DNA of 57,694 nt from a virus. Where the stretch lies: UHGV virus genome UHGV-0135630; one strand, given 5' to 3'. This document shows, piece by piece, positions 13,019-51,000 of the stretch (positions are counted from its first letter, which is position 1; each line of letters begins with the position of its first letter). The notes below the pieces were generated by a model. The model searched no databases, was not told the DNA's origin, and saw only the letters and a list, made by a program, of their open reading frames with translations. The position numbers and the translations under genes are program-made.

Positions 13019-13034
13019 TCCCATTACGTGACCA

Positions 13035-13060
13035 GTAAGGCGTCTACGGACGCCTTACTT
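13035..13060 (+). terminator. rho-independent terminator (GGCGTC...GACGCC hairpin family)
   Basis: taaggcgtctacggacgcctta + T-run; same stem recurs near 15369 and 16510. Confidence 0.45.
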
Positions 13061-13078
13061 TTTGGAAGGAATGTACCG

Positions 13079-24229: not shown

Positions 24230-24962
24230 ATTAAGCCGCTCGCAGTTTTTGCAGGTATTTGCAGTGATGCAGTCGATAAAACTGATCAATGGGCATACTT
24301 CCAATGGTGCGGCTCCACGTATTCTGTGGGGCAGCAACAATATTGACGGAGTACAATTCGCCGCGTTGCTTGGTCTAATATCCGAGACGCCATTGATGCA
24401 AAGTTTGAAATCACTACCACCTGGATGTATTGCGCCGATCCTGATTAATCCTTTTGTTGAGGGGGGATATCTTCCCAACGTCGGGCCTGGGTTTATTGCA
24501 TCCCATGAAACTGAAGATCTTAACATTAATAGCGAAGGGTTCTTTGGGGGTATGGGTGCGCATCACTGTATGGCTTTCACGAACCTTATTCGACTTGCCA
24601 ATAAGCGGGTGGATAGTTTGGCATCGCCAGGTGATGCTTTTACTGGTTTCCTTATCCAAAGGAGGGATAAAAAGTACAGTGCGGACAAACTACAGTTTGT
24701 TGGTAAGTATGGAGAAATGGTAGAAATCGAACTTCAGCTCCCGCATGTTTTAGCAAACGATAGTGCAGACAGTCGGAGGCTGTTGGGCATCATGCGTCAT
24801 TTCATAGCAAGTGGCGTTAAACATGCCGTAGATAAACGTGTCACGCAGGAAAATGAGTATTCAGACTTTGCAAACTCTCCCCAACCAACGTTGCAAACGG
24901 CAATAGTAACCAATTCGTTGGAGGCGAGATTATTGGAAAACCCTATATGGGGAACATGGTAA
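24219..24962 (+). CDS. hypothetical protein
   Basis: 247 aa overlapping the sbcC-like stop. Confidence 0.45.
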   Translation: MSFKLSRSQFLQVFAVMQSIKLINGHTSNGAAPRILWGSNNIDGVQFAALLGLISETPLMQSLKSLPPGCIAPILINPFVEGGYLPNVGPGFIASHETEDLNINSEGFFGGMGAHHCMAFTNLIRLANKRVDSLASPGDAFTGFLIQRRDKKYSADKLQFVGKYGEMVEIELQLPHVLANDSADSRRLLGIMRHFIASGVKHAVDKRVTQENEYSDFANSPQPTLQTAIVTNSLEARLLENPIWGTW

Positions 24963-24971
24963 GGAGACTAT

Positions 24972-25541
24972 ATGAGTAAAAAAATCAGCGTAGTTGGTGT
25001 TGATCCCTCAATGAGCAACTTTGGGCTTGCTGTGGGCACTTTAGACCTTGAGACGGACGAACTTGAGATTCACGGCCTTACTCTTGTTGAGACTAAAGCG
25101 GGGAGTAACAAAAAGACCGTTCGTGTGAACAGTGACGATCTGCGCCGAGCCAGTGAAATATGGCGTGTTGCGAAGCCAATCATTGATAAGGCAAATATGG
25201 TTTTTTGTGAGCTACCGGTTGGGAGCCAAAACTCTCGTTCGCAGACGTCTTACGGTATTTGTATCGGTGTACTTGCGTGTGTGGATAAGCCATTGATCCA
25301 GGTTACTCCAAACGAAATCAAGCATTTTGTCGGCAATAAACTTACTACATCGAAAGAAGAGATTATCCAGTGGGCTACGAAAAAACACCCTAAAGCACCG
25401 TGGCTGCGTCGTAAGCAATCTGGACAGGATGTTCTCGTGAACAAAAACGAACATTTGGCTGATGCGGTGGCTGCCATCCATACCGGTATGCAAACAGATC
25501 AGTTCCGCCAGGTGCGCGATGTTCTTAAGTCTCTCATTTGA
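24972..25541 (+). CDS. RuvC-like Holliday junction resolvase (putative)
   Basis: N-terminal VVGVDPSMSNFGLAV and C-terminal EHLADAVAAIHTG resemble RuvC catalytic regions. Confidence 0.55.
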   Translation: MSKKISVVGVDPSMSNFGLAVGTLDLETDELEIHGLTLVETKAGSNKKTVRVNSDDLRRASEIWRVAKPIIDKANMVFCELPVGSQNSRSQTSYGICIGVLACVDKPLIQVTPNEIKHFVGNKLTTSKEEIIQWATKKHPKAPWLRRKQSGQDVLVNKNEHLADAVAAIHTGMQTDQFRQVRDVLKSLI

Positions 25542-25614
25542 TTTCATTGATAGGTAAGTGCTTATCTATTAACATGGGCCACTATATTTAGTGGCCCTCT
25601 TTATTTGGTGATAC

Positions 25615-27930
25615 ATGATAAGCATCGTAAAACGTAACGGCCAAACAGAGCCGTTATCCGAAGAAAAATACAACCGCGTCGTAATGTATGGCGTAGAAGG
25701 CATTCGTGGTGTAAGCGCATCCGCTGTAGCAATGGGAGCTGCGGCCAGCATTTTTGATGGGATGACCACCAGCCAGTTGCATGAGGCTTTGGTTAAATCT
25801 GCCGCTGATTTGATCTCACCAGAAGCACCAAATTACTCACAGGTGGCTGCCCGCCTGAACATTTTTAAAATCCGCAAAGATGCCTTCGGTCGTTACGACT
25901 ATCCGAACTTCTACCAACACATTGTCAAGAACGTTAACAAGGGCGTTTATGACAAGGATTTGCTGACACATTATTCGTTTGAAGAGATCGAAGAACTCGG
26001 CAATTACATTAAGCCGAAACGTGACGATCTTTTTGGCTATGCAGCTACGGTGCAGTTGCAAAGCAAATACCTCGTTCAAAACCGTGTTACTGGTGAGATT
26101 CATGAGGGGCCGCAACATATCTATATGCTGGTAGGCATGTGTCTGTTCCAGAATTGGGAAGACGACTGCGCTGGCAAAACACGTATGGAGATGGTCAAAG
26201 GTTTCTATGACGTTACAAGTACGTTCAAACTGTCTCTGCCCACACCAATCATGGCCGGCGTCCGTACTCCAACCCGTCAGTTCTCCAGTTGTGTGCTGAT
26301 TGAGTCTGGCGATAGTCTGAAAGGGATTAGTGCAGCTTCAGCCGCAATTATCGACTACGTTTCACGTCGTGCTGGAATTGGTATTGGTTTTGGCCGTATC
26401 CGTGCGCTGGGCAGCGAGATCCGCAATGGTGAAGCCACCCATACTGGAGTTATTCCATTCCTGAAGCATTTCCAGACGGCTGTTAAATCTTGTTCGCAAG
26501 GTGGTGTTCGTGGTGGCGCAGCAACAGCGTTTTACCCGATCTGGCATCTTGAAGTTGAAAGTCTGCTGGTGGTGAAAAATAACCGTGGTATTGATGAAAA
26601 CCGCGTTCGCCATCTTGATTACGGCGTCATGAGTAACCGTCTAATGTACCGTCGACTCGTCAGAAGCGAGAACATCACTCTGTTCAGCCCGCATGATGTG
26701 CCTGATATGTACGAAGCCTTCTTCACAGACCAGGAGCTGTTTGAAAAGCTGTACCATAAATACGAAGCCGATGATTCAATTCGCAAGAAGTCAGTACCTG
26801 CCATTGAGCTGTTCTCATCTCTGATGCAGGAACGAGCGTCCACGGGCCGAATTTATATTGCGAACGTCGATCATATTAACGAGCATGGCGCTTTCATTCC
26901 TGCTCTTGCACCTGTTCGCCAGTCAAACCTGTGCATGGAGATCACTCTACCCACTCGTCCACTGGCATTTACCGACGACCCGAACGGTGAGATCGCGCTA
27001 TGCACTTTATCCGCTTTTAACCTCGGAGCCATCCGTTCACTGGAGTCTCTTAAAGAGGTGGCGTTCTATGCCGTTGCTGCACTGGATTCGTTACTGGATT
27101 ATCAAGACTATCCGATGGAGGCAGCCGAAGTGCCTGCCAAAGCTCGTCGTAGCTTGGGAATTGGTGTAACCAACTTTGCTTATTACCTGGCAAAGAATGG
27201 CGTTCGTTATTCTGATACCGCTGGCAATAAACTGGTGCATGAAACGTTCGAAGCTATCCAGTATTACCTTCTTGATGCCAGCTGCCGACTTGCTGAAGCA
27301 AAAGGTGAGTGTGACTGGTTTGAGCAGACCAAGTACGCAATTGGTCAGTTGCCGATCGACCATTACCGTTCTTCATTAGACGAAAGCGGCGAAACCAACT
27401 TTGAGTTAAAGATGCCGTGGGAAGAACTGCGTGAACGTATTGCAAAATACGGCCTTCGCAACTCCACACTGACGGCACAAATGCCATGCGAGACTTCCAG
27501 CCAGATCACTAATTCCACCAACGGCATCGAACCGCCTCGTGGCCCGGTGTCGGTGAAATCTTCTAAGGACGGCATCGTTAAGATGGTCGTGCCTGAGTTT
27601 GAAAAACTGAAGGAACAGTATGAATACCTGTGGGATATGCCGGACAACCGCGGCTATCTGACAAAGGTGGCGATCATCCAGAAGTTCTTTGACCAGGCTA
27701 TTTCAGCCAATACCAACTATGACCCTTCTCGCTTTGAAGGCGATAAAGTCCCAATGATGACGCTACTGTCAGATTTGCTTCTCGCCTACAAGATGGGAGT
27801 TAAAACGCTTTACTACCACAACACCAGAGATGGGGCAGGAAAGCGTGATGACGACGAACCGCAGAATCCACTGACGCAAGCTGTAGCCGTCGAGCCAGAA
27901 GATGAGTGCGACGGAGCCTGCAAAATCTGA
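25615..27930 (+). CDS. nrdA: ribonucleoside-diphosphate reductase alpha subunit (class Ia)
   Basis: 771 aa collinear with E. coli NrdA (PTPIMAGVRTPTRQFSSCVLIE, SNLCMEI, C-terminal GACKI). Confidence 0.9.
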   Translation: MISIVKRNGQTEPLSEEKYNRVVMYGVEGIRGVSASAVAMGAAASIFDGMTTSQLHEALVKSAADLISPEAPNYSQVAARLNIFKIRKDAFGRYDYPNFYQHIVKNVNKGVYDKDLLTHYSFEEIEELGNYIKPKRDDLFGYAATVQLQSKYLVQNRVTGEIHEGPQHIYMLVGMCLFQNWEDDCAGKTRMEMVKGFYDVTSTFKLSLPTPIMAGVRTPTRQFSSCVLIESGDSLKGISAASAAIIDYVSRRAGIGIGFGRIRALGSEIRNGEATHTGVIPFLKHFQTAVKSCSQGGVRGGAATAFYPIWHLEVESLLVVKNNRGIDENRVRHLDYGVMSNRLMYRRLVRSENITLFSPHDVPDMYEAFFTDQELFEKLYHKYEADDSIRKKSVPAIELFSSLMQERASTGRIYIANVDHINEHGAFIPALAPVRQSNLCMEITLPTRPLAFTDDPNGEIALCTLSAFNLGAIRSLESLKEVAFYAVAALDSLLDYQDYPMEAAEVPAKARRSLGIGVTNFAYYLAKNGVRYSDTAGNKLVHETFEAIQYYLLDASCRLAEAKGECDWFEQTKYAIGQLPIDHYRSSLDESGETNFELKMPWEELRERIAKYGLRNSTLTAQMPCETSSQITNSTNGIEPPRGPVSVKSSKDGIVKMVVPEFEKLKEQYEYLWDMPDNRGYLTKVAIIQKFFDQAISANTNYDPSRFEGDKVPMMTLLSDLLLAYKMGVKTLYYHNTRDGAGKRDDDEPQNPLTQAVAVEPEDECDGACKI

Positions 27931-28036
27931 CATATGGTGGGGGATATCCCCACCTTCTCTTTGATTTGTAAGCCTTGTTTAAACACATAAGATAACAACT
28001 TGTTTAAACGCACCAAAAAAGAAAAAGGAAAAACAC

Positions 28037-29179
28037 ATGTCATATTCAACGTTCCGTTTGGGTGCTAATGATGCAACCAAAGAGCCTATGTTCCTCGGAC
28101 AATCTGTCAACGTGGCACGTTACGATCAGCAAAAATACCGTGATTTTGAAAAGTTGATTGAACGTCAATTGTCTTTCTTCTGGCGGCCGGAAGAAGTTGA
28201 TATTTCGAGCGATCGTATCGACTTCAACACGAAGCTGCGGGACCACGAACGTCACATTTTTCTGAGCAATCTCCGTTATCAAACGTTACTCGATTCAGTT
28301 CAGGGACGTAGTCCAAATGCAACGCTGCTGCCGCTTATCTCTATTCCTGAACTGGAAACGTGGGTTGAAACGTGGTCTTTCTCTGAGACTATCCATAGCC
28401 GCAGCTACACCCACATTATTCGTGGCATGGTGGACGATCCGAGCATTGTTTTTGACGGTATTGTTACGGATGAAGAAATCATCAACCGAGCGATCAGTAT
28501 CTCTGCTGAATATAACAGGCTTTATGGGATGACCTGCGAGCGCCAGTCGTTAGGTGAGAAGGAGTTTGAACGTCTGTACGTAAATGAATATGGCTGGGAG
28601 CCATACCCTTTGCACCGTCAGCTTTTCCGCACGTTGGTGTCCATTAATGCGCTTGAGGCGATCCGTTTCTATGTAAGTTTTGCATGTACGTTTGCCTTTG
28701 GCGAACGGAAGTTGCTTGAGGGTAACACCAAAATTATGCGCTTTATTGCCCGTGATGAAGCTCTGCATTGCGAAGGAACTGAACGCATGATCCGCTTCAT
28801 GCGTACCGGTCGCGAAGGTTTATTGTGGAAAGAGATTGCTGCTGATGAAGAAAACGTCATTTACGACACCATGAAATCAGTCGCCGAACAAGAAATGAAC
28901 TGGGCAGACTATCTCTTCAAAGACGGTTCGATGATTGGTTTAAACGCGGATATTCTCAAAACCTATGTAAAATACCGCACCAATCTGGCTATGAATCGTC
29001 TTGGCCTGAAGGCTTTATTTCCAGAGGTTACCACCGATCCGCTGGTCTGGATGAACAAGTGGTTGTTAACCGACACACTGCAAATTGCACCACAAGAGGC
29101 AGAGCAAAGCACATATCTGGTAGGTCAGATCGATTCTACCGTGGATAAGGCTTCTCTAAGCCAGTTTGCTGACCTGTAA
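28037..29179 (+). CDS. nrdB: ribonucleoside-diphosphate reductase beta subunit
   Basis: 380 aa; di-iron ligand pattern ([15 protein letters not shown]) and NrdB-like C-terminus. Confidence 0.9.
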
Positions 29180-29256
29180 ACCGATACAAAGCATTATGTG
29201 GCCTGGCAACGCTGGGCCACAATGGATCTCAAGAATTAAGAAGGAACAAAACTAGC

Positions 29257-30126
29257 ATGAACTTTACCAAACTGACTGACCACCTGAAACTTGCCACCGA
29301 TCGACTCATTGGATTTAAGCCAGAACCATATGAGTTGCATGAAGGTCATGGTGTAGCTACTGAAAGTATTTACAAGATGGTCGATCAGTTTCATGAACTC
29401 TTCCAGCATCCGAGACGCGTTATGCCGACACCAGAGCTGCTTCGTCTCCGTGCAAGCCTGATTCATGAAGAAGCTGTAGTGGAAGGTATTCCTGCCGCAA
29501 TGAATGGGGATATTGAGCAACTGCTGGATGCAATGGCCGACTTTTTATACGTTGGTGTTGGTACGATGGTCGCCATCAAAGGTGGTATTTCTACCGGCAT
29601 GACCTATTACACGCAGGAACAGAGCATTGATCGCTTTATGCAGACAATTTTTGTGCCCGGTAACACTGTTTTCGATGATATGGCAATGCCATTTCAGGAA
29701 GCTCGTGAGGCGTCATGTATGCTCGAAGAGCTGGCAGATAAACTTGAGAACAAGACTGTTAAGGATTCTGAGCTGATTCAGGAACTGCGCCGTGTCATGA
29801 ACAAAATCTATGTGGCGTGCATGATGACCTATCGACTGGCTGATTTCCTCGGTATCAATGTAGTCGAGCTGGTTGGCGAAATTCATCGGTCTAACATGAC
29901 AAAATTATGGCCTGCTGATGTTGAGGAACGTCGCCAGGCTGTGGCCAACTGCAAATACGACTCTTCAGATCTGGGATTCCGCCATGCTGATGGTACCGAT
30001 AAGATGATCGGTTTTCGAATTTCCGATGGAAAGATTCTGAAGTCTCCAACCTATAGTGATGTCGATTTATCCTCCTTTGTTGAGCAAGCTAAAGCCTCAG
30101 CAATGTACGGAATGATCAAAAAATAA
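29257..30126 (+). CDS. MazG-like nucleoside triphosphate pyrophosphohydrolase (tandem all-alpha domains, putative)
   Basis: 289 aa with two EExxE/D-containing helical repeats; between nrdB and thyA. Confidence 0.5.
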   Translation: MNFTKLTDHLKLATDRLIGFKPEPYELHEGHGVATESIYKMVDQFHELFQHPRRVMPTPELLRLRASLIHEEAVVEGIPAAMNGDIEQLLDAMADFLYVGVGTMVAIKGGISTGMTYYTQEQSIDRFMQTIFVPGNTVFDDMAMPFQEAREASCMLEELADKLENKTVKDSELIQELRRVMNKIYVACMMTYRLADFLGINVVELVGEIHRSNMTKLWPADVEERRQAVANCKYDSSDLGFRHADGTDKMIGFRISDGKILKSPTYSDVDLSSFVEQAKASAMYGMIKK

Positions 30127-30297
30127 TTGTAGGTAGTTATCTATCTGTGTATATTGCGTTGGCGCGTTGAATTTCTGAAGCAACTATTCGTTTTTGGTGG
30201 CCTATGGCCACCATTTTTTTATCTATCTGGTCTTGTTCTCTCAATAAATGTAAACTCACGCAATGAATAAGTGGTTACTTATCTTTGTGAGGTTTTT

Positions 30298-31401
30298 GTG
30301 TCACTCCTTTTGAATCGTGAGCATACGAACGGTCAGGTAACAAACGCATCGTATGCAAAAGTTATTGAGACGGTGCTTAAAAGCGGCGTGCAGGCTGATG
30401 ATCGCACAGGCACTGGTACTTTAAGCACCTGCTACGTTCCCTCTTACTACATGCTTACTGGTGGGACTGTGCCGCTTATTTCTGGAAAGGCGGTAAATCT
30501 TAAGCCACTGCTTGTCGAACTTGAGTGGTATCTGAAAGGCACGGGCAACATCCAATTTCTCAAGGATAACGGCGTTAAGATTTGGGATGCATGGGCCGAT
30601 GAGAATGGCGATTTGGGGCCGGTTTACGGTAAGCAGTGGCGTCGATGGGAAGATACCCGCATCGTGAGCCATAGTGAATATCTGAGCAAGATCGCTACTT
30701 TCCGTGAACGCGGGTACAAAGTCGAGGGATACCTGGGTATCAGTGAAGATCGCGTAGTGCTGTCCCGTGAAATCGATCAGCTACAGCGTATTGTCGATAC
30801 ACTGCGCACGAACCCTACCGATCGTCGCATCATGCTTAACGCATGGAACGTAGGCGAGCTTGAGGATATGAAACTGCCACCTTGCCACTTTGTCTTCTCT
30901 TTGTGGAGTCGTGAGCTGGATTTTGAAACCCGTTTAACGATGGCAACTGACATTGGTCTTCAACACAGTCGCCTCGGTTACGAGTCTATCTACACCAAGA
31001 TGCTATACGATCTGGAGATGGACGGCAGTGTTACTGAAGCTGAACTGGATGAACTTGGAATCCCCAAACGCATCCTCAACTCCTGCCTCGTACAGCGTAG
31101 CGTAGACACTTTTGTTGGTATGCCATTCAATATTGCTGGCTATGGCATTCTCACTCATTTTCTCGCGAAGATTACGGGTCACATGGCCGGTGCATTTGTG
31201 CATTTTGGCTTTGACGTGCATTTGTACAACAACCACATGGAAGGTGTGTGTGAGCTAATGAAACGACAGGCTCCAGAGCATTCAGATCCGGTCGTTATTT
31301 TCCCTCATGAATGGTCAGAGTTGGATGATTTCAAATGGGACGAGGTTTTAATTCTTGGCTATGACCCTCTATCGTGGATCAAGGTTCCAGTGGCGGTGTG
31401 A
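30298..31401 (+). CDS. thyA: thymidylate synthase (ThyA family) with insertions
   Basis: DRTGTGTL, WADENGDLGPVYGKQWR, RRIMLNAWNVGELEDMKLPPCH, GMPFNIAGY; start set to GTG after GAGG RBS (ORF track gives 30271). Confidence 0.8.
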   Translation: MSLLLNREHTNGQVTNASYAKVIETVLKSGVQADDRTGTGTLSTCYVPSYYMLTGGTVPLISGKAVNLKPLLVELEWYLKGTGNIQFLKDNGVKIWDAWADENGDLGPVYGKQWRRWEDTRIVSHSEYLSKIATFRERGYKVEGYLGISEDRVVLSREIDQLQRIVDTLRTNPTDRRIMLNAWNVGELEDMKLPPCHFVFSLWSRELDFETRLTMATDIGLQHSRLGYESIYTKMLYDLEMDGSVTEAELDELGIPKRILNSCLVQRSVDTFVGMPFNIAGYGILTHFLAKITGHMAGAFVHFGFDVHLYNNHMEGVCELMKRQAPEHSDPVVIFPHEWSELDDFKWDEVLILGYDPLSWIKVPVAV

Positions 31402-31402
31402 T

Positions 31403-31816
31403 ATGGCAAGAGGTATGTATGTCTTATGCGAAATTGAAGGTGTGCTGGCAAATGCCAGCCATCGTAAATCAGTATCTGACGCGGATGCAGGCCAGCTCAT
31501 TGCCGGTGATGAACTCATTTTCCCCACCAGCCGTATGTTGCGTGGTTTTGCTCGCTCAGGGGCTGAAGTGGTGCTTATCAGTAGCCGCTCTGAAACTCTT
31601 GAAGCGCCAACTAAACGATGGCTGAAAGATTTTGGCGTTGATTATGACTGGCTTCATCTCGTACCGAATGGCACCAGTTATGAGAAGCATATTAAGCGCA
31701 CATTAGCGGAGCATAAAGGCGATCTGCTTATCGCTGCGCTGGTGCACGATCCTCGACTCCGTGCCGCTTTAGCCGACTCTCACCATCGACCGGTCATCTA
31801 TGAGGTGAGCAAATGA
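31403..31816 (+). CDS. hypothetical protein, possibly HAD-like hydrolase
   Basis: 137 aa from internal ATG overlapping thyA stop; VLCEIEGVL weakly resembles HAD motif I. Confidence 0.35.
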   Translation: MARGMYVLCEIEGVLANASHRKSVSDADAGQLIAGDELIFPTSRMLRGFARSGAEVVLISSRSETLEAPTKRWLKDFGVDYDWLHLVPNGTSYEKHIKRTLAEHKGDLLIAALVHDPRLRAALADSHHRPVIYEVSK

Positions 31817-32289
31817 AGATGATCGCTGCTGTTGGCCGTAACTATGAGATCGGCATAGCGAATGAACTCCCCTGGCGTTGTTCTACCGATCTGAAGCTAT
31901 TTAAGAGACTCACCAAAAACGCCACTGTCGTTATGGGGCGTAAAACGATGGAAAGTCTCAAACGCCCTCTTCCAGAGCGTCATAACCTCGTTTTGACGCG
32001 CTCTCATGGCTTTGTACCAAATGGATTCTACCCTGCTGGTGTGGATGATGTGTTGCGATTACCAGAGCCTGTGTGGGTGATTGGCGGGGAACAAATTTAC
32101 TCGCTATTCATGCCGCATGTTGAAGAGATTTGGCTCTCCCACATCGGCGTTGATGTGCCAAACGCCGATGCATTCTTCCCGGCAAGCATGATGCGTAATT
32201 TAGGCTTTGTGCCTGTTGAAACAGCTTATACCCAACGAGCCAGCGAGGAAGAGCCTGGCTTTTCGCAGATCGTATACAGAAGGTCGTAA
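31813..32289 (+). CDS. folA: dihydrofolate reductase
   Basis: 158 aa; MIAAVGRNYEIGIANELPW and VVMGRKTMESL are DHFR hallmarks; coupled to thyA. Confidence 0.85.
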   Translation: MKMIAAVGRNYEIGIANELPWRCSTDLKLFKRLTKNATVVMGRKTMESLKRPLPERHNLVLTRSHGFVPNGFYPAGVDDVLRLPEPVWVIGGEQIYSLFMPHVEEIWLSHIGVDVPNADAFFPASMMRNLGFVPVETAYTQRASEEEPGFSQIVYRRS

Positions 32290-35132: not shown

Positions 35133-35726
35133 ATGATTGCAGCCGAAAAAATCAAACAGCGAAAGCGCGACAACTCTCTTCGTGACCTCTGGAGAACACC
35201 TGACTGGCTGTTTTCTGCCATTCAACGTTATCTTGGAGTGACATTTGATGTTGACGTTGCCTGCAACAAGGACAATGCAAAGCTGCCTAATTTCATAGGC
35301 GTTGAGCGTGATGCTTTGAAATCTGAATGGGGACAGCCAGGTACAATTGCCTTCCTCAATCCACCCTACTCCAAAATCTCCCCCTGGATTGATGCGGCTA
35401 TACGTGAGCAGGCTCGCGGAGTTACAACAGTGATGCTAATTCCTCAATCCCTAGATACAAAGTGGTATGAGCGTGCAACAGAGTGTGCGAATGAGACGAT
35501 TATTCTGTCTGGTGGCCGCGTAGCGTTTGTCGAGCCTGACGTCAATCTGGGTCAGGTAGAAGTAAACATCAACCCAGGTGGCAGTATGCTCGTTGTTTTT
35601 CGAGGATTCTGTCAGGACGCTGGGCACTCTATAAGCAAGATCCCTTTGGACGTCATGAAAAGTCTGGGAGGGTATGATCCTGCGAATGTGATCAGGAAAA
35701 AAAGACCATCAAAGAAGGCTGCTTAG
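35133..35726 (+). CDS. phage-type DNA N6-adenine methyltransferase (Dam family)
   Basis: WRTPDWLF and FLNPPYS motifs characteristic of phage Dam methyltransferases. Confidence 0.75.
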   Translation: MIAAEKIKQRKRDNSLRDLWRTPDWLFSAIQRYLGVTFDVDVACNKDNAKLPNFIGVERDALKSEWGQPGTIAFLNPPYSKISPWIDAAIREQARGVTTVMLIPQSLDTKWYERATECANETIILSGGRVAFVEPDVNLGQVEVNINPGGSMLVVFRGFCQDAGHSISKIPLDVMKSLGGYDPANVIRKKRPSKKAA

Positions 35727-35911
35727 TTTGTTCTGGCGTCTGTAATTAGCCTGCTTCTGTATATATAAATAACTACATATTAATTATTAATATACGGAAG
35801 CAGGCTGTTTTGTATCAGAGACTCCAGACCTGAACATCACTACAGAATCCACTAGAACCCCTTCCCAGACGCTTTAAAATCGATTTTATGAATCACTTTA
35901 AGGAAACTAAC

Positions 35912-36142
35912 ATGTCATACCCGACTAATGTCGTTGCGCTCGTAGAGAGCGATTTTCTGGCCCAGGCCCGTGAAATGATGAAAGATCGCGAGCAGGCTTT
36001 CAACTTGTACGAATGGGCAATTAAGTGCTTGCATCTTGGGGAGCATCGCGAACTTGTTGAACAGCTTTTAGGTGAGTTGATTAACGAGGTGTTTGCCTTG
36101 AATGTTCAACTACATGGTCGAGAAAATAATCAATCGAAATGA
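35912..36142 (+). CDS. hypothetical protein
   Basis: 76 aa from ATG after AAGGAAA RBS. Confidence 0.4.
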   Translation: MSYPTNVVALVESDFLAQAREMMKDREQAFNLYEWAIKCLHLGEHRELVEQLLGELINEVFALNVQLHGRENNQSK

Positions 36143-36179
36143 TAGATAAGTACAAACTATTCATAAAGTGAATTGTAAG

Positions 36180-36660
36180 TGCTAAGATCTGATAGTTTCC
36201 AGTCGTAGACTGGAGACTCGACCTGATGGGTGGGGGTAAGCGTCACTGGCGTCAGGTTTAAAAAAGCTCACTACCAGCGTAGAACCGGTGCCGTTTAGGT
36301 GTCGGGGAAGGGGGAACCAAAGTGAGCGGAGACAAGGGTCACTTTATGATTGTCGAGTCTGGGGTGTTTCGAGAGGTTGAATCCAGTACTCCCCTTCATA
36401 AAGTGTGGGAAGATCTCGGTTCTGGGGTGCTGTCATCCATAACTTCCCAAGTCTAAGCTGGCAGTAGACTTAGGCCATAACTTTTCAGGTTATGAAACGA
36501 CCAGGTTGGTGAGGGATTTTTATACTCACCTCCCTGGGAGAGTATTACCTGAAAAGACAACCTCTCACTTCGTTCGAGGTGAACTTCACTCACTTCGTTC
36601 GTTCAGTTCAGGTTTATAAAAACCTGTTCTGGGAAGTAATTTGTTTATTTTAATAATTAT
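36180..36660. ncRNA. candidate structured noncoding region (unknown RNA or origin-like element)
   Basis: About 480 bp without ORFs; local hairpin CCAGTCgtaGACTGG; long-range complementarity GGAGACTCGAC with GTCGAGTCT; repeated TCTGGGGTG, TTCATAAAGTG and TCACTTCGTTCG. Confidence 0.25.
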
Positions 36661-36726
36661 TAACACGCACGCGTGTGCGCACGCGCGAGGAAAAAAATCG
36701 GCGCGGCGCTTGATTCAGGAGTTTAT

Positions 36727-37320: not shown

Positions 37321-37465
37321 GTAAGTGTTTACCTATCATTTTAAATCATGTATCTTATCAGCGTCAGGATGACAATGTGTCGGTAAGACACAGTTCCAGG
37401 ATGGAACGAGAAAGGCGGCTGGCAATCGCCAGCCGCAACTCTTTCTGACACTGGATGGAGTCCAC

Positions 37466-38167: not shown

Positions 38168-38220
38168 CGGTTGTTAGTGCATATGCATTGACCGTCTTTT
38201 CGTAAGCAATTCATGTAACT

Positions 38221-38260: not shown

Positions 38261-38686
38261 ATGTTAGGTTTATTCAAAAAGAAAACTCGTAAAGCTGTTA
38301 TCGAGGTCAAAAAAATGGAGAACCGAGATGCGGTTGAAGCCACCGTGTGGGGCGCGTACATGATCTCCTATGCCGATGGCACATGCGACGCAAAGGAAAT
38401 TTCCATTCTTGAGAAAACAATTGCAGCTCTGCCTGCGTTTTCTCCGTTTGCTGGTGAGATTGCCCAAATGAGCGCCAATATCCGTGCTCAATACGAAGCC
38501 TCACCGCGCCGCGCTAATGCCCAGGCTTTACGTGAGCTGGCTGATGTGGCCGGGACTAATGATGCAGTAGATGTACTGTGTCTGTGCCTTGATATTGCCG
38601 ACCAAGACGGTATTGGCGAACAAGAAGAGCTGGCCCTGAAAAAGATCGCACAGGCGCTTCAGTTGTCACTGGATGCTTATCTCTAA
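38261..38686 (+). CDS. TerB-like domain protein (putative)
   Basis: YADGTCDAKEISILEKT and LDIADQDGIGEQEELALKKIAQAL resemble TerB repeats; assignment from memory. Confidence 0.5.
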   Translation: MLGLFKKKTRKAVIEVKKMENRDAVEATVWGAYMISYADGTCDAKEISILEKTIAALPAFSPFAGEIAQMSANIRAQYEASPRRANAQALRELADVAGTNDAVDVLCLCLDIADQDGIGEQEELALKKIAQALQLSLDAYL

Positions 38687-38983
38687 TGCTTGAGAGATTC
38701 CGGCTTGTGACCGTCATTGCTCTTCTGGTGATGGCGGTGTTGGTGGATTTTACGGGAAAGATGATGTCTGTCATTTCTGATGGCGTCCTCATTGGTCTGG
38801 CGATCTACTTCGCTTATCCGCTAGTCCGTAAAGCAACGTGTTAATGACAAGGGCCAAATGGCCCTTGTGTTTCGTTGACCGAAATAGAGAGTTTGCACCT
38901 TTACGTTTAGCTTGCTCCCCTTTTATGCCACATCACAATAAAGCCAATAAGAAAACAACTTGTTTAAGCATTAGGAAAAACAC

Positions 38984-39553
38984 ATGTGCAAGAAATGCAA
39001 AGCGATAGCTGATGAACAAAACGCCTTATTCGAAGAAATGGATGCTAATGAACTGGTCAAAATGTTAGCCATTCTTCGAGGAATAGAAGACGTTTCCATA
39101 TTTGAGAGAGTGGTTACAGCACTTAATTTTGAGTCCACCTTTGAAGAGCCAACTCAGGTTGTAGCTTTAGCACATCATTTCGGTGTTCATTATCTTGCTG
39201 AAAAAGAGCGCGCTGATAAGTTGCAGGCGACTTTGGATATGGTGAGCGAGACTCAACGAACTGATGACACTAACAAGAGTGAGGCGATTATTGCCAGCAA
39301 AGATCGTGAAATTGCTGGGCTTAAATCCTCTCTAACGATGTTGATGTCTGCGTTCAATCTTATGTCTTCTCAGGCGGGTTATAAAATGCCATCACTAAAC
39401 AGCGATGATCCGATGGCCGTTCGTCAGCTTTTGGGAGCAATGGCCGACCAACTCGACGACACAAAGAGTCGGCTTGAAGACATGATGCGTGAGTTAAGCC
39501 ATCGACATAACCTCGCAACACAGCCACACAAAGCCTTTCAAAGCTCTAATTGA
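38984..39553 (+). CDS. hypothetical protein
   Basis: 189 aa; motif A and consensus start context upstream. Confidence 0.5.
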   Translation: MCKKCKAIADEQNALFEEMDANELVKMLAILRGIEDVSIFERVVTALNFESTFEEPTQVVALAHHFGVHYLAEKERADKLQATLDMVSETQRTDDTNKSEAIIASKDREIAGLKSSLTMLMSAFNLMSSQAGYKMPSLNSDDPMAVRQLLGAMADQLDDTKSRLEDMMRELSHRHNLATQPHKAFQSSN

Positions 39554-39608
39554 TCTGATATGGCCGCATGATCGGCCATATTGTGTTGATAAAAAACAAG
39601 GATGAAAA

Positions 39609-39890
39609 ATGGCATACGGTACAGGGATTTACAACAATAAAGGAATTAACGTTACTGGCTTCCTTACTCCTATTTTTTTTCTTGATCGATTTACTGCGTC
39701 ATCAGGCTCTAAGACGTACTCCAATCCGCCACCGGGTAAATCGCTACATGCCGTGTGGTCATTGATGCCTCTTAACAACGACAACTACATTAATTTACCT
39801 GTTCCAACAGTTACTATTAATGGAAATACGGTTAGTTGGTCAAATTTATATAGGGGGCTTGGTTCTTACATATACACATACTGGGGATAA
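39609..39890 (+). CDS. hypothetical protein (AT-rich gene)
   Basis: 93 aa; locally low GC. Confidence 0.4.
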   Translation: MAYGTGIYNNKGINVTGFLTPIFFLDRFTASSGSKTYSNPPPGKSLHAVWSLMPLNNDNYINLPVPTVTINGNTVSWSNLYRGLGSYIYTYWG

Positions 39891-39892
39891 TT

Positions 39893-40507
39893 ATGTTCGG
39901 GATGTCAATTACTCAATCAGATGGAAGTTTGTGGATGAGTCCAGAATTTACTCCGCAAAATCTGATTAATAAAGGGACAATGTCTACATCTAAAGGTTCT
40001 GTTTTTCAAACATCAATCCCATCAAACAAATCATGCTTTTTCTTCATAAAAAGCAGTAATAAGGCGAACATGATGTTTATTCATGAGCATAGTAACGGAT
40101 ACAATGCTCTCAGATTGCATCAGGTAAATGGTAGCCCCGGAACAATAACAGTTTATGCTTTTTCTGATATGGTGTTACCACATTCTGGCTATGGCATTGC
40201 CATGTATAACAGCGCAGGCGCAATGGTGTATCACGGTGAGATGATGCCCCTTGATGCGAAACTTATCACTATTTCTGACCCTCAATTTACAATAGATATG
40301 GGGTATCCATGTGCGGTAATGCCTGCTATGGTTGGGGTATATAACTATAGACGAACCGATTACGACAGACCTGTCTATGTAACAATGACAGGTGCAACTG
40401 GAAACCAAGTATATAACGGTCAATGGTATTCCGGTAATGTCACATGGGATATTAAGAAGATTTATACAAACAAAATTCTGGTGATAAATACCTCCAAGTA
40501 TGATTAG
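39893..40507 (+). CDS. hypothetical protein (AT-rich gene)
   Basis: 204 aa; starts 2 nt after previous stop. Confidence 0.45.
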   Translation: MFGMSITQSDGSLWMSPEFTPQNLINKGTMSTSKGSVFQTSIPSNKSCFFFIKSSNKANMMFIHEHSNGYNALRLHQVNGSPGTITVYAFSDMVLPHSGYGIAMYNSAGAMVYHGEMMPLDAKLITISDPQFTIDMGYPCAVMPAMVGVYNYRRTDYDRPVYVTMTGATGNQVYNGQWYSGNVTWDIKKIYTNKILVINTSKYD

Positions 40508-40610
40508 CCAATGCCTTTATTTGAAGGATTGCCTGTTTATTTCTATTTAGTACCTTTTCATTTTTGAAATAATTGCACCATTAAACAAATCACTTCTTAA
40601 TGGTGCAATT

Positions 40611-42296
40611 ATGAATACAGCCCTTTCCATCATCGACGATGCCAACTCAAACACTGCTATCGACTATCGGCAGGAAATGAACGTCATCCACGAAATTGTG
40701 GCCGAGTGCGAGAAAGAGATCGCCTTCATGTATCAGGTACACGACTTCGTTTATGGCGACGAACGCCACAACATGATTAATCGCCTGCTGAGACTAAACC
40801 ATCGACCAGATGAAGATCGCTCGCGTTTAAATCGAGGTTGGTTGGATAAAGTCGATCTGGAATGGGTGAAACAGAATATTTGGGCCGAGTACTGGAGGAA
40901 GGTCACGGACATGACTAACGTTTTGCTGATCATGCCAGCTTCCCGTCGAGATGAGTGGCGCGAGCAGTTTATAGAGGGCAAACAGGAAGTCATCAAAACT
41001 GACAGAACCGGCTACCAGATGAAGGTTAAAGAGTTCGTTGGTGTACCGGAGTTCAAAGCAGAAACGGTCATACCCACGATGCTTAATTTGCTGAATGACA
41101 GGCACAAATATCTCTCTGAGCGCGTGTATGGCTTGTTTAAGGCGCTGAGTCCTGCGCACAAGACAAATAAGACAAACGGTTTCAGCGAGCGGCTGATAAT
41201 CGCTGACTGCATTTCTGATTTCTGGCGGGACAGCGTTAGCGTGAACTATCGCAAAGAGGACTACATCGACGATCTGCGTGTCTTGCTTCATTTCTTCGCG
41301 CACAAAGAATTTATTACCATCAATCGCACTGCTGAGGTGCTATCAGCTGCGTATCGGGCAAACGACTGCCAGACCGGTGACTGGATGAACGTCGATGGAA
41401 ATCTGATGCGCGTGAAGATGTTCAAGAACGGCAACGTTCACTTTGAAATACATCCTGACGTGGCCTGGAAGTTGAATGAGGTGATGGCTTACAGTATGCC
41501 TGCTGCAATCCCCGCGCCATGTCGCACCGCGCCAAAAACACGGGCACCAAAGCAGTTCGGGTTAATCCAGAAGACGATCTCCGTGCCGGTTCGCACTGCG
41601 CTTCGTGACGGGCGATTGAGCAAAGACAAAGGCGTATGGTACTTCTCTGATTCAGCTCTCCAGAAGTCGCAGGTGGAAGAGCTTGAGCGCACACTGAGCT
41701 TCATTGGCGGCGTGCAGGAGAAAAAACACTGGCAGTTCCCGTATGAGATCGGCCATACGCTAAATACGATTGTGGCTACCGGATTAATACCGGATACAAA
41801 ATCACACCAGTTCTACCCTACCCCACGCTTGATTGCTGAGTACGTTGCCAGAGCCACTGAATTGAAGTCTGGTGAGAAGCTGCTGGAGCCTCAAGCCGGA
41901 CGTGGGGATCTTCTGGCCTATATCAACGCCGATCTGGAAGATGTTACCTGCATAGAAATCGCACCTCTCTTCGCTGATATCCTGCGCGGAAAAGGGTATA
42001 CGAACACGATTTGCTGCGACTTCATAAAGTGGTCTGAGGACAACGTAGGTTATCAGTTCGACAAAATCGTTATGAACCCGCCGTACTCGCTTGGTCGTCA
42101 TAGAGAGCACACGCTGGCTGCGCTGGGGCATCTGAAAGTCGGCGGGCGTCTTGTAGCAGTATTGCCGGGCACTGCGCCAATACTGGACTGGATGACGATG
42201 GATAATTACGTTTATGCCAGAGGGAAGTCGTTTACCAACGAGTTTGAAGACACAGGGATCACAGTCAGCGTATACGTTTTCAAACGCGTTAAATGA
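40611..42296 (+). CDS. DNA methyltransferase with large N-terminal domain of unknown function
   Basis: 561 aa; C-terminal third has EPQAGRGDL and IVMNPPY; N-terminal about 360 aa unassigned. Confidence 0.65.
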   Translation: MNTALSIIDDANSNTAIDYRQEMNVIHEIVAECEKEIAFMYQVHDFVYGDERHNMINRLLRLNHRPDEDRSRLNRGWLDKVDLEWVKQNIWAEYWRKVTDMTNVLLIMPASRRDEWREQFIEGKQEVIKTDRTGYQMKVKEFVGVPEFKAETVIPTMLNLLNDRHKYLSERVYGLFKALSPAHKTNKTNGFSERLIIADCISDFWRDSVSVNYRKEDYIDDLRVLLHFFAHKEFITINRTAEVLSAAYRANDCQTGDWMNVDGNLMRVKMFKNGNVHFEIHPDVAWKLNEVMAYSMPAAIPAPCRTAPKTRAPKQFGLIQKTISVPVRTALRDGRLSKDKGVWYFSDSALQKSQVEELERTLSFIGGVQEKKHWQFPYEIGHTLNTIVATGLIPDTKSHQFYPTPRLIAEYVARATELKSGEKLLEPQAGRGDLLAYINADLEDVTCIEIAPLFADILRGKGYTNTICCDFIKWSEDNVGYQFDKIVMNPPYSLGRHREHTLAALGHLKVGGRLVAVLPGTAPILDWMTMDNYVYARGKSFTNEFEDTGITVSVYVFKRVK

Positions 42297-45919: not shown

Positions 45920-47020
45920 TCACACTGCGCGGAATGCGATTTCGCCAGGTATTACTTCGCCTTGCCAATACATTTGTGCGGCAACGCGATCTGCGAGGTC
46001 ACGGTAAATAGCAGTAAATTCGCTGTCTGGGCGACTAATAACGGTTGGTGTTCCGTTATCCAGATCTTCACGAAGTGAGATATGAAGAGGCATTTGGCCT
46101 AACAACTGCGTGTTGTATTTCTCTGCCAGCTTCTCTGCACCACCGGTGCCAAAAATTGGCTCGTGATGACCGCAGTTACTGCAAATATGCACACTCATGT
46201 TTTCGACGATACCCAGTACCGGCACTTCGACTTTTTCGAACATCACAATGCCTTTCTTCGCATCGATCAGCGCGATATCTTGCGGCGTAGTTACCACCAC
46301 AGCACCCGTTACAGGAATGTTCTGCGCCAGCGTCAACTGAATATCACCAGTGCCAGGCGGCATATCGAGAACGAGATAGTCCAGATCAGGCCACAATGTT
46401 TCCTGCAACATCTGCATCAGCGCCTTGCTAGCCATCGGTCCGCGCCACACCATTGCATTGTCGTCGGTGACCAGATAACCAATAGAGTTGGTTGCCAGGC
46501 CATGAGACATGATAGGTGCCATGTGAGTACCGTCCGGTGAGGTTGGACGTTGGTTTTCCGCGCCCAGCATGGTTGGAATTGATGGCCCGTAGATATCGGC
46601 ATCCAAAATACCAACTTTCGCACCTTCAGCAGCCAACGCCAGTGCCAGGTTTACCGCCGTTGAGGATTTACCCACGCCGCCCTTGCCTGAGCTTACGGCG
46701 ATAATATTCTTAACGCCATTAATGCCTGGTTGGTTTTTGACGCGCTTAAGCGTGGCAATGTTGTACGACAGCTTCCAGTCAATAGCCTTTGCGCCAGTGA
46801 TACGGAGCAGATCACCACTACATTGCTCTTTCAGGTCTTCAAAAGGCTTATTCCACACAAAAGGCATGATCAGTTCGACATGCAGTGTGTCATCCATCAA
46901 CGCAACATGGTGTAACGCTTTAAGCGTTGTCAGGTTGTGTTTCAGGGTTGGGTGCTGAAAATTAGCCAGCGTACCGGCTACCATTGCTCTCAGGGCATCC
47001 GGCGATTTGGACTCGCTCAT
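45920..47020 (-). CDS. apbC: iron-sulfur cluster carrier ATPase ApbC/Mrp
   Basis: 366 aa; Walker A SGKGGVGKSS; CxxC motif; collinear with E. coli Mrp as recalled. Confidence 0.9.
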   Translation of the reverse strand: MSESKSPDALRAMVAGTLANFQHPTLKHNLTTLKALHHVALMDDTLHVELIMPFVWNKPFEDLKEQCSGDLLRITGAKAIDWKLSYNIATLKRVKNQPGINGVKNIIAVSSGKGGVGKSSTAVNLALALAAEGAKVGILDADIYGPSIPTMLGAENQRPTSPDGTHMAPIMSHGLATNSIGYLVTDDNAMVWRGPMASKALMQMLQETLWPDLDYLVLDMPPGTGDIQLTLAQNIPVTGAVVVTTPQDIALIDAKKGIVMFEKVEVPVLGIVENMSVHICSNCGHHEPIFGTGGAEKLAEKYNTQLLGQMPLHISLREDLDNGTPTVISRPDSEFTAIYRDLADRVAAQMYWQGEVIPGEIAFRAV

Positions 47021-47177
47021 CCCGTCTCCTTTATTTTAATTTGCGCAATTGTCGCCTTGTAGTGTACTCCAGCTACGACATTTAATCATTTATGAGAAAT
47101 GCTGTTATCACATGGCAGACATAAGACCATTTTGTTACTATCAAGCCCCTTTTCACTACAAAGAAGTAATGCCTACT

Positions 47178-49211
47178 ATGACCCAAGTCGCGAAGAAAAT
47201 TCTGGTGACGTGCGCACTGCCGTACGCTAACGGCTCAATCCACCTCGGCCATATGCTGGAGCACATCCAGGCTGATGTCTGGGTTCGTTACCAGCGAATG
47301 CGCGGCCACGAGGTTAATTTCATCTGTGCCGACGATGCCCACGGTACGCCGATCATGCTGAAAGCCCAGCAGCTTGGTATTACCCCGGAGCAGATGATTG
47401 GCGAAATGAGTCAGGAGCATCAGACTGATTTCGCAGGCTTTAATATCAGCTACGACAACTATCACTCGACGCACAGCGAAGAGAACCGTCAGTTGTCTGA
47501 GCTTATCTATACTCGCCTGAAAGAGAACGGTTTTATTAAAAACCGCACCATCTCTCAGTTGTACGACCCGGAAAAAGGTATGTTCCTGCCGGATCGTTTT
47601 GTGAAAGGCACCTGCCCGAAATGTAAAGCGCCAGATCAATACGGCGATAACTGTGAAGTCTGCGGCGCGACCTACAGCCCGACTGAACTGATTGAACCGA
47701 AATCGGTGGTTTCTGGCGCTACGCCGGTAATGCGTGATTCTGAACACTTCTTCTTTGATCTGCCCTCTTTCAGCGAAATGTTGCAGGCATGGACCCGCAG
47801 CGGTGCGTTGCAGGAGCAGGTGGCAAACAAAATGCAGGAGTGGTTTGAATCCGGCTTGCAACAGTGGGATATCTCCCGCGATGCGCCTTACTTCGGTTTT
47901 GAAATTCCGAACGCGCCGGGTAAATATTTCTACGTCTGGCTGGACGCGCCGATTGGCTACATGGGTTCCTTCAAGAATCTGTGCGACAAGCGCGGCGACA
48001 CTACCAGCTTCGATGAATACTGGAAGAAAGACTCTACCGCTGAGCTGTACCACTTCATCGGTAAAGATATCGTTTACTTCCACAGCCTGTTCTGGCCAGC
48101 AATGCTGGAAGGCAGCAACTTCCGCAAGCCGACTAACCTGTTTGTTCATGGCTATGTGACAGTGAACGGCGCGAAGATGTCCAAGTCTCGTGGCACCTTC
48201 ATTAAGGCCAGCACCTGGCTGAATCATTTTGACGCTGACAGCCTGCGTTACTACTACACTGCGAAACTCTCTTCGCGTATTGATGATATCGACCTGAATC
48301 TGGAAGATTTCGTTCAGCGCGTAAATGCCGATATCGTCAACAAAGTAGTGAACCTGGCCTCCCGTAACGCTGGCTTTATCAACAAGCGTTTTGACGGCGT
48401 GTTGGCAAGCGAACTGGCTGCCCCTGAACTGTACAAAACCTTTACTGATGCCGCTGAAGTTATTGGCGAAGCGTGGGAAAGCCGCGAATTTGGTAAAGCG
48501 ATCCGTGAAATCATGGCGCTGGCTGATCTGGCTAACCGCTATGTCGATGAACAGGCTCCGTGGGTGGTGGCGAAGCAGGAAGGACGCGATGCCGATCTGC
48601 AGGCGATTTGCTCTATGGGCATTAACCTGTTCCGCGTGCTGATGACTTACCTGAAACCGGTACTGCCGAAACTGACAGAACGTGCGGAAGCATTCCTGAA
48701 TACGGAACTGACCTGGGATGGCATCCAGCAACCGCTGTTGGGCCACAAAGTGAATCCGTTCAAGGCACTGTATAACCGTATCGATATGAAACAGGTGGAA
48801 GCACTGGTGGAAGCATCCAAAGAAGAAGTGAAAGCAACTGCCGCGCCAGTTACTGGCCCGCTGGCTGATGATCCGATTCAGGAAACCATCACCTTTGACG
48901 ACTTCGCCAAAGTTGACCTGCGCGTGGCGCTGATTGAAAACGCAGAGTTTGTTGAGGGTTCTGACAAGCTGCTGCGCCTGACGCTGGATCTCGGTGGCGA
49001 AAAACGCAATGTCTTCTCCGGCATTCGTTCTGCTTACCCAGCCCCACAGGCACTGATTGGTCGTCACACCATTATGGTGGCTAACCTGGCTCCGCGTAAA
49101 ATGCGCTTCGGTATCTCCGAAGGCATGGTGATGGCTGCTGGCCCTGGCGGGAAAGATATCTTCCTGTTAAGCCCGGATGCTGGTGCTAAACCTGGCCACC
49201 AGGTTAAGTAA
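47178..49211 (+). CDS. metG: methionyl-tRNA synthetase
   Basis: Begins [26 protein letters not shown] (HIGH-type motif), KMSKS present, C-terminal tRNA-binding domain; start moved to the internal Met of the 720 aa ORF. Confidence 0.95.
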
Positions 49212-50128: not shown

Positions 50129-50239
50129 CCAAACCGTTGATAATGGCGGTCATAATTTGATTTTTTTCTATAAGAATCCGTTGATCGCCACTACTCCCCT
50201 TCCATACCTGCAATCACATCCTTAAATATCAATAGGTTA

Positions 50240-51000
50240 TAGTTGTTTATACAAACAAGAAAACAACTGAATAACAGATCAACGAAACGTCAACGCTTTC
50301 ACCCGATTTGGTCTAAAAAATTGACGTTTTCACACATCACTGCTTATACCCGTAATTCTACGCAGCAGACAGCGCCACAGCGTCCAATTTTCACCACAGA
50401 CGACCCAACACACTACCAACAAAAACACACGCTCAAAATCGTTCCCGTTGCGTTACATAACCATATAAACAACTTATTTTCAGGCATAACAAAACAACTA
50501 AATAACACATATTCCATTACCAAAAACAACCAACCTCTTTATGGCAGGCTACCGAAAAGACCCACCTCTTCTTCCCAGGCTACCGGACAACCAACCTAAC
50601 TTTCACAGGCAATCCGAAAACATTCATACGCGCGATACCCACGACACGCCATTACCCAAACAGCGAAGAAACACCAGAATCACTGAAACCCCAACGAAGC
50701 CTGTAACCGCAAGGTTTCTCTCAATCCCAAAAGACACGAAACATAACAATCACGGGAAACGCCATTACCCAATACACGAATAACTACAAAAGCCTTTCAC
50801 ACACTCCAGACAAACAACTCAAACACAATAACGAAAGGAATCGCCCACCTGCCATTACTCCATACACGGAGAAGAACAATCACCAAAACGACGAGAACAC
50901 CCCATAGAAGAACCACCGCAAAACGAACGAAACCACATACACCGACAGAGAGAACAACACACCCAATTCACCAACAGAAATAGTCGCCGCATAGAACGTT
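50240..51000. repeat. A+C-rich, G-poor noncoding region with dispersed GCCATTACCCAA-like and CAGGCTACCG-like repeats
   Basis: Strong strand compositional skew over about 760 bp; ORFs here look spurious. Confidence 0.5.

Follow-up and report, generated by a model that had tools for sequence, protein, structure and literature searches.

The window analysed here, the whole 57,694 nucleotide (nt) stretch of virus genome UHGV-0135630, is by its sequence an SSU5/pHCM2-like phage-plasmid of Escherichia coli, and the block of genes at positions 38261-42296 is likely to be a mosaic of four independent modules. These are a P1-type tciA-tciB pair, a backbone gene encoding a protein of 189 amino acids (aa), a low-GC gene pair that would form a split receptor-binding protein (RBP), and an orphan N6-adenine DNA methylase. 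The assignments draw on sequence identities, protein folds, synteny and the silence of these genes in a lysogen. The original prediction, made from the sequence of the window, had described the block as cargo-like, with the methylase as possibly part of an uncharacterised system. That description does not agree with our results: the methylase and the 189-aa gene belong to the backbone of the element, the TerB-like protein is one half of a P1-type tciAB pair, and the low-GC pair is RBP-like.

The block (4,036 nt) is 100% identical to part of the E. coli plasmid pF404-2 (106 kb) and is present in 250 E. coli records, with 255 of its 259 matching places lying on plasmids of ~106-125 kb. Phage Cyrano (= pLF82) is 97.6% identical to the block, and Salmonella phage SSU5 and Klebsiella phage-plasmids conserve it in part. 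The annotation of the surrounding genes fits a phage-plasmid of the SSU5/pHCM2 type: nrdAB, thyA, dfrA51, a 3'-5' exonuclease gene, a phage Dam gene and rnhA come before the block, and DUF551/Ea22-like genes, an S24 peptidase gene and plasmid-borne apbC and metG lie 3' of it. Between ~20 kb and ~45.9 kb of the window, all genes are encoded on the + strand. The five open reading frames (ORFs) of the original prediction and the EPQAGRGDL and NPPY motifs were all recovered, and it had missed one further ORF, the 52-aa tciB (Table 1). A sigma-70 scan yielded fewer promoter-like sites than shuffled sequences, so no promoter is claimed. Rfam gave no match within 35-52 kb of the window, and no transfer RNA (tRNA) genes were found in the whole window.

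Table 1. Features of the block, with positions in the window
Feature	Position	Strand	Basis or remarks
tciA: TerB-domain protein, 141 aa, P1 TciA homologue	38261..38686	+	Pfam, PHROG, aa identity
tciB: small membrane protein, 52 aa, DUF3927	38686..38844	+	start overlaps tciA stop
Terminator-like hairpin closing tciAB	38847..38868	+	consensus scan only; 9-bp stem, 6 GC pairs, T-rich tail
189-aa backbone protein (phrog_5508; SSU5_094 / CYRAN_87 homologue)	38984..39553	+	PHROG, synteny
93-aa protein: proposed tail-proximal (adaptor) half of split RBP	39609..39890	+	PHROG, colinearity
204-aa all-beta protein: proposed distal, receptor-contacting half of split RBP	39893..40507	+	
561-aa orphan methyltransferase	40611..42296	+	helical N-terminal region, DUF4942, alpha/beta domain, gamma-type N6-adenine methyltransferase core

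Expression in the lysogen was taken from published RNA-seq data for Cyrano grown in LB. The counterparts of the six block genes, CYRAN_85-90, read 5-11 on a scale with a floor of 5 (PMC9928086 S1 Table), compared with values of 96 for the repressor and 7,084 for CYRAN_43 (PMC9928086), and none of them reaches 5-fold above background there (PMC9928086). The gene for a Dam-like methylase, CYRAN_79, is likewise at the floor (PMC9928086). Because the six genes are silent in the plasmid state, the data argue for lytic-cycle roles (methylation of progeny DNA and building of the virion) rather than for a standing defence system, and the near-floor values argue against a standing protective or exclusion function in plasmid-carrying cells. 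The mosaic would lie in a unidirectional region that is repressed in the lysogen.

It is hardly probable that the whole block, or the methylase gene together with a few neighbours (the TerB gene, for instance), is a cargo island encoding an uncharacterised system of defence, exclusion or protective methylation that is active in plasmid-carrying cells. Such an island would accord with an orphan methylase bearing a large N-terminal domain of no known role, with the presence of TerB domains in certain settings of stress response and defence (a TerB gene lies ~7 kb from one distant methylase homologue), and with the gene flux indicated by the low-GC insert. However, PADLOC matched the methyltransferase (MTase) core only (mad2, MTase_II) and gave nothing for the other five proteins, no neighbour is conserved around distant methylase homologues, the six genes are silent in the Cyrano lysogen, and the modules occur independently of one another. 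For example, SSU5 carries Ant in place of tciAB and has no low-GC pair at this position, tciAB is found alone in P1 and in Klebsiella phages of 39-45 kb, and the low-GC pair is found alone in lytic phages. As regards restriction-modification or another known anti-phage defence system, Pfam, NCBIfam and PADLOC searches of the block and its flanks gave no nuclease or effector, no nuclease adjoins the methylase gene at four distant homologues, and the Cyrano data show expression at or near the floor in the carrier state. In this respect the earlier statement that no cognate nuclease is recognisable, and the suggestion that the adenine-methyltransferase-like enzyme is an orphan, both hold.

The low-GC pair is the module for which our results depart most from the original prediction. 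It has 38.9% GC compared with 45.7% for the window and falls in the lowest 1.7% of stretches of the same size; it had been called strongly AT-rich, which is right as to direction and overstated as to degree. The 93-aa protein matches phrog_557 (5.2e-29) and is 30% identical to SSU5_023 of the SSU5 tail locus. An exhaustive profile search recovered only 118 representative relatives. Most of these are ~205-230 aa long, and a subset of ~310-325 aa has the homologous region beginning near residue 100. The N-termini of these fused ~315-aa homologues are colinear with the 93-aa ORF, so that the pair behaves as the split version of one ~300-aa protein; a below-threshold match of the 204-aa protein to DUF6453 (E 0.012) served only as a hint of a split longer protein. 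The AF2 model of the 204-aa protein is confident (pLDDT 93.6) and all-beta, and its only strong fold match is a solved RBP, with 13% identity. A Foldseek search of BFVD with this model returned uncharacterised phage proteins only. The 93-aa protein has no detectable similarity to the 101-aa product of the first gene of the JakobBernoulli locus described below, or to the 204-aa protein. No signal peptide, transmembrane segment or lipobox was found in either protein, and the labels 'outer membrane' and 'membrane associated' attached to relatives of the pair were rejected on that ground. The RefSeq label 'cysteine peptidase family C39 domain', which some records give to an identical 204-aa protein, has no support from Pfam or NCBIfam.

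Homologues of the pair occur in several kinds of phages. The virulent Nonagvirus phages JenP1, JenP2 and BRET carry a two-gene unit that is 76% identical to the pair at the nt level, and in JenP1 it directly adjoins the gene for 'central tail fiber J'. Stx-converting phages carry a unit that is ~65% nt-identical and comes directly after the tail-fibre genes. In Drexlerviridae, homologues of the 204-aa protein found by tblastn sit in the dedicated RBP locus. BASEL phage JakobBernoulli, the receptor of which is FhuA, has ORFs of 101 and 223 aa after its J-like gene, and phiE31-2 has, in order, a lipoprotein gene, a 91-aa ORF and a 204-aa ORF beside its J-like gene. A diverged copy of the pair (27-30% identity) is also present in SSU5 (12357-13464), between a tail-fibre adhesin gene and the Cor exclusion gene. 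At the position that corresponds to the block, SSU5 has no such pair, and there 141 nt with a terminator part the 189-aa gene from the methylase gene. The absence at this position, together with the 76% nt identity to the Nonagvirus RBP locus, marks the low-GC pair as a horizontally moving insert, in line with the recent acquisition that had been proposed from its composition. A single copy of the pair is detectable per E. coli element, and the tail locus of Cyrano (22511-26739) consists of gpJ, a P1 S-like fibre gene and a holin gene, with no pair-like genes.

Host-recognition genes have thus been rearranged differently in the two sub-lineages: SSU5 keeps a copy of the pair and Cor in its tail locus, and in the E. 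coli elements that region has given way to a P1 S-like fibre gene, with the pair carried elsewhere.

We read the low-GC pair as the terminal RBP of the element, acquired horizontally and parked outside the tail operon, which would be incorporated into the virion and bind the receptor there. The closest known systems are the dedicated RBP loci (the 'bona fide RBP loci' of BASEL), including Rtp44 and the RBP of Oekolampad (PDB 9RPT), and the FhuA-type two-gene locus of JakobBernoulli and T1-like phages. Dedicated RBP loci of small siphoviruses set the specificity for the terminal receptor and dock non-covalently on a J-like tip (Maffei et al. 2021); they are often accompanied by an exclusion protein and are horizontally mobile (Maffei et al. 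2021). The 204-aa protein has the receptor-binding protein fold of the Oekolampad/Rtp44 type. A J-like tail-tip protein with a shared C-terminal docking module is also present, in that Cyrano J shares 38% identity with JenP1 J over its final ~190 aa (6e-34) and 32% with JakobBernoulli J over its final ~290 aa (2e-34), and all three J proteins end in LRV.IGRL. The 93-aa and 204-aa proteins would therefore be a split RBP, the sole copy in the element, docked non-covalently on the C-terminal end of the J-like protein, with the 93-aa piece as tail-proximal adaptor and the 204-aa beta-sandwich as the part that contacts an outer-membrane protein receptor.

Several observations weigh against this reading. 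Unlike the RBP loci named above, the pair is not adjacent to gpJ, which is followed by the P1 S-like fibre gene and then the holin gene; instead it lies ~60 kb from the tail genes, amid genes of replication and nucleotide metabolism, which is atypical for an RBP locus. No superinfection-exclusion lipoprotein of the Cor, Rtp45 or Llp type is encoded beside it, and no ORF with a lipobox flanks it. The likeness of the 204-aa protein to the solved RBP is structural only, as no sequence-profile match to the PDB was obtained, and it has no detectable sequence similarity to the LptD-type RBP. Homologues of the pair adjoin gpJ in JenP1, JakobBernoulli, phiE31-2 and the SSU5 tail locus, and an exclusion gene stands beside them in SSU5 and phiE31-2.

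The separation from the tail genes would also suit a different role, in which the pair is a moron that acts inside the cell or at its envelope, for instance in superinfection exclusion, as a tail-fibre chaperone or as a decoy. Two further facts lend themselves to this idea, namely the legacy labels 'outer membrane protein', 'membrane associated protein' and 'C39 peptidase domain' in JenP1, SSU5 and RefSeq, and the orientation of the pair in JenP1 and phiE31-2, which carry it on the strand opposite gpJ. Nevertheless, we consider a moron unlikely: the proteins lack a transmembrane segment, signal peptide and lipobox, they have no C39 or other Pfam or NCBIfam match, the sole strong fold match of the 204-aa protein is a solved RBP, a separate lipoprotein or Cor gene beside the pair fills the exclusion role in phiE31-2 and SSU5, and expression in the lysogen, which would be expected of an exclusion factor, is lacking for the pair in Cyrano.

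A related observation concerns short-tailed Stx phages. In Stx phage Lyz12581Vzw (2114-4298) the pair directly follows the gene for a 422-aa tail protein ending in ...VRIGRL, as siphovirus J proteins do, which makes the pair a candidate for the terminal RBP in this group as well.

The largest gene of the block encodes the 561-aa methylase (SSU5_095 in SSU5), which on comparative sequence grounds is a backbone gene and not cargo. It is kept at ~555-570 aa on contigs of ~100-118 kb from ten enterobacterial genera (E. coli, Salmonella, Klebsiella, Citrobacter, Cronobacter, Enterobacter, Buttiauxella, Xenorhabdus, Providencia and Moellerella), and Morganella has a shorter homologue of 438 aa. A helical N-terminal region and DUF4942 (aa 140-294) are followed by a small alpha/beta domain (aa ~325-390) and the MTase core (aa ~397-561). 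The motif order X (FYPTP), I (EPQAGRGDL) and IV (NPPY) is that of gamma-class enzymes, in which motif I stands before motif IV, (N/D)PP(Y/F). Across 32 homologues, the most distant at 33% identity, the residues for S-adenosylmethionine (SAM) binding and catalysis do not vary. The chain ends (residue 561) ~70 aa after NPPY, leaving no room for a C-terminal target-recognition domain, and the extra mass is N-terminal. Compared with the gamma-class N6-adenine DNA MTases M.TaqI, M.BseCI and CamA, the protein thus lacks their C-terminal recognition domain, has in its place an N-terminal region of ~395 aa (DUF4942 and flanks), and is without a partner endonuclease.

The N-terminal domain had been described as uncharacterised. 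Part of it, residues 140-294, is Pfam DUF4942 (PF13708; 72.6 bits against a gathering threshold of 25, profile positions 35-186/190), so that the region is not without a known family. The description stands as to function, since a search of the literature on DUF4942, PF13708 and Methyltransf_27 found no functional study, and the N-terminal 395 aa have no detectable relative of known function. As a profile query, the N-terminal region recovered only full-length MTase fusions and no new architectures. Taken together, the enzyme would be a stand-alone, SAM-dependent N6-adenine DNA methyltransferase with an M.TaqI-like core minus the usual recognition domain, and the constantly fused DUF4942 region most likely supplies DNA binding and sequence recognition. 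We consider it improbable that DUF4942 is instead a second catalytic domain, which would make the protein a bifunctional nucleic-acid-modifying enzyme, even though many polar residues are invariant across homologues of 33% identity (H183, T185, N186, D221, R223, D262, H277, H281, N289 and R305) and DUF4942 also exists without an MTase, both in phrog_38825 (299 aa) and in L0010-type island proteins (PMC6980539).

With regard to the substrate, methylation of RNA (adenine of ribosomal RNA or tRNA) or of some other non-DNA substrate, as a host-takeover function, is very improbable. Among structural matches the highest sequence identities are to DNA MTases (M.TaqI 25%, CamA 26%), M.TaqI is the only PDB sequence match, and the core matches the PADLOC Type II MTase (MTase_II) and mad2 profiles and PHROG 'DNA methyltransferase' families at 1e-10 to 1e-299. 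In addition, homologues in prophages adjoin other DNA MTase genes and replication genes. The genes of the four distant homologues, which are 33-38% identical, belong to early regions of prophages. They come after repressor/Cro-like genes or within groups of replication genes, and their neighbours are often orphan methylases of the N6_N4 or Dam type and in one case umuDC-like genes.

A second orphan adenine methylase, which is Dam-like (2.5e-38 to the phage Dam family PF05869), is encoded at 35133-35726, 5 kb upstream of the methylase gene and in the same orientation. The element thus has two N6-adenine methylases that are unrelated to each other, and the genes for both are silent in the lysogen of Cyrano. 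The 561-aa enzyme would be made in lytic growth along with the Dam-like one, and methylation of progeny genomes before packaging may allow them to escape restriction in the next host. A partly comparable case is that of M.EcoGIX and M.BceJIII, single-strand-specific orphan methylases of plasmid leading regions, which are beta-class enzymes with DPPY (PMC7736820) and are proposed to protect incoming DNA from restriction (PMC7736820). They share with the 561-aa protein the status of an orphan adenine methylase on a mobile element that is silent in normal growth, but the latter is a gamma-type NPPY enzyme with DUF4942 on a phage-plasmid without a conjugation leading region. An M.EcoGIX-like single-strand methylase was accordingly rejected as an identification, since those enzymes are beta-class with DPPY and without DUF4942, and here the motif is NPPY with motif I upstream.

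Directly before the methylase gene, a perfect hairpin with a 16-bp stem (40569..40612, + strand) ends inside the start codon. The RNA fold has a free energy of -20.6 kcal/mol (z -5.4; none of 200 shuffles was as stable), and its 3' arm bears a GGTG Shine-Dalgarno-like element and runs into the ATG. SSU5 has kept the 3' arm and only part of the 5' arm. The hairpin may control translation of the methylase or serve as its operator.

The remaining two modules can be assigned by family and position. The tciA product matches Pfam TerB (29.3 bits against a threshold of 24.4), matches phrog_632 'tellurite resistance' end to end (2.8e-62) and is 85% identical to P1 TciA over residues 1-123, as expected from its earlier description as TerB-like; no transmembrane segment was found in it. 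The tciB product matches PF13064 DUF3927 (1.9e-12) and the TciB-like phrog_1470 (7.8e-21) and carries hydrophobic segments, and its Cyrano counterpart is annotated as P1 TciB-like. A second terminator-like hairpin lies upstream of the pair (38173-38192; consensus scan), so that tciA-tciB is a P1-type unit of a TerB protein and a small membrane protein between terminator-like hairpins. The arrangement agrees with the P1 tciA-tciB(-tciC) locus in the identity of TciA and in the 52-aa TciB-type gene that follows immediately with stop/start overlap, and differs in that no equivalent of P1 tciC was identified in this element. The name of P1 TciA reflects TerB similarity only. Pairs of the tciAB type are also found in P1, SJ46 and many temperate Klebsiella and E. 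coli phages of 39-45 kb, and in SSU5 an anti-repressor gene (Ant) occupies the slot. The 189-aa protein matches phrog_5508 (1.2e-111) as the sole family, with no significant match in Pfam, NCBIfam or PADLOC. Its homologues in SSU5 and Cyrano are likewise encoded immediately upstream of the methylase, for which reason we regard it as the product of a backbone gene; like the methylase, it is conserved in SSU5-like phage-plasmids from at least ten genera of enterobacteria. It is probably not a partner of the methylase, since no equivalent is present around the four distant methylase homologues.

Other features were observed elsewhere in the window. The same unidirectional region holds full-length housekeeping-type genes (apbC, metG, nrdAB, thyA and dfrA51; 45920-49211 and 25615-32289), among which the dihydrofolate reductase of dfrA51 is annotated as trimethoprim-resistant. 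Between rnhA and a 164-aa gene, a strong, perfectly symmetric GC-rich hairpin (37415-37436; 9-bp stem, 8 GC pairs) scores as a terminator on either strand. In the Cyrano lysogen, the 135-nt ORF CYRAN_81 is 12-fold above background with all its neighbours silent (PMC9928086 Table 1 and S1). Its counterpart region in the window is ~36150-36670, between an 84-aa ORF (35888-36142) and rnhA, which suggests a small moron or a non-coding RNA in this intergenic stretch. Finally, an ORF-free region of ~800 nt (50200-51000) directly downstream of DUF1380-family genes, without annotation in pF404-2, has extreme strand asymmetry (GC skew -0.37, AT skew +0.32), its + strand being rich in A and C and poor in G and T. 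It contains three degenerate direct repeat units of ~30 nt (50524-50615) and three units of the type 'GCCATTACCCAAwACA' (at 50648, 50761 and 50851), and might function as an origin or iteron-like region, or else encode an unstructured non-coding RNA.

Most of the block is ordinary, in that every gene is present in hundreds of public plasmid or phage records, mostly annotated as hypothetical, and each module is of a known kind. Two aspects are mildly new. In SSU5-like phage-plasmids of E. coli, the only RBP-like module appears to be placed ~60 kb away from the tail genes and to be shared with virulent Nonagvirus phages, and the methylase combines a gamma-type core with an obligate N-terminal fusion to DUF4942. 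A bolder interpretation, which we regard as rather doubtful, is that the terminal-receptor module has been uncoupled from the structural operon in these elements and swapped for a Nonagvirus-like allele among early genes beside the methylase, so that host range would be set by a freely exchangeable, self-regulated cassette, or alternatively that the pair was co-opted for a task inside the cell and outside the virion; as a separate point, DUF4942 would be a new N-terminal target-recognition or second catalytic domain, and phage adenine methylases that bear it would make up a new architectural class. Clinical E. coli, Salmonella and Klebsiella commonly harbour SSU5/pHCM2-like phage-plasmids, which are able to carry resistance genes (PMC9600943), and forecasting the spread of these elements needs the genes for host range and for protection from restriction. 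The DUF4942-methylase family has hundreds of members, and the specificity of one would serve the whole Pfam DUF. If the displaced module is a real terminal RBP, host-range prediction from the tail operon alone would miss it, and the 76% nt identity to Nonagvirus would document RBP exchange between lytic phages and plasmid-like prophages.

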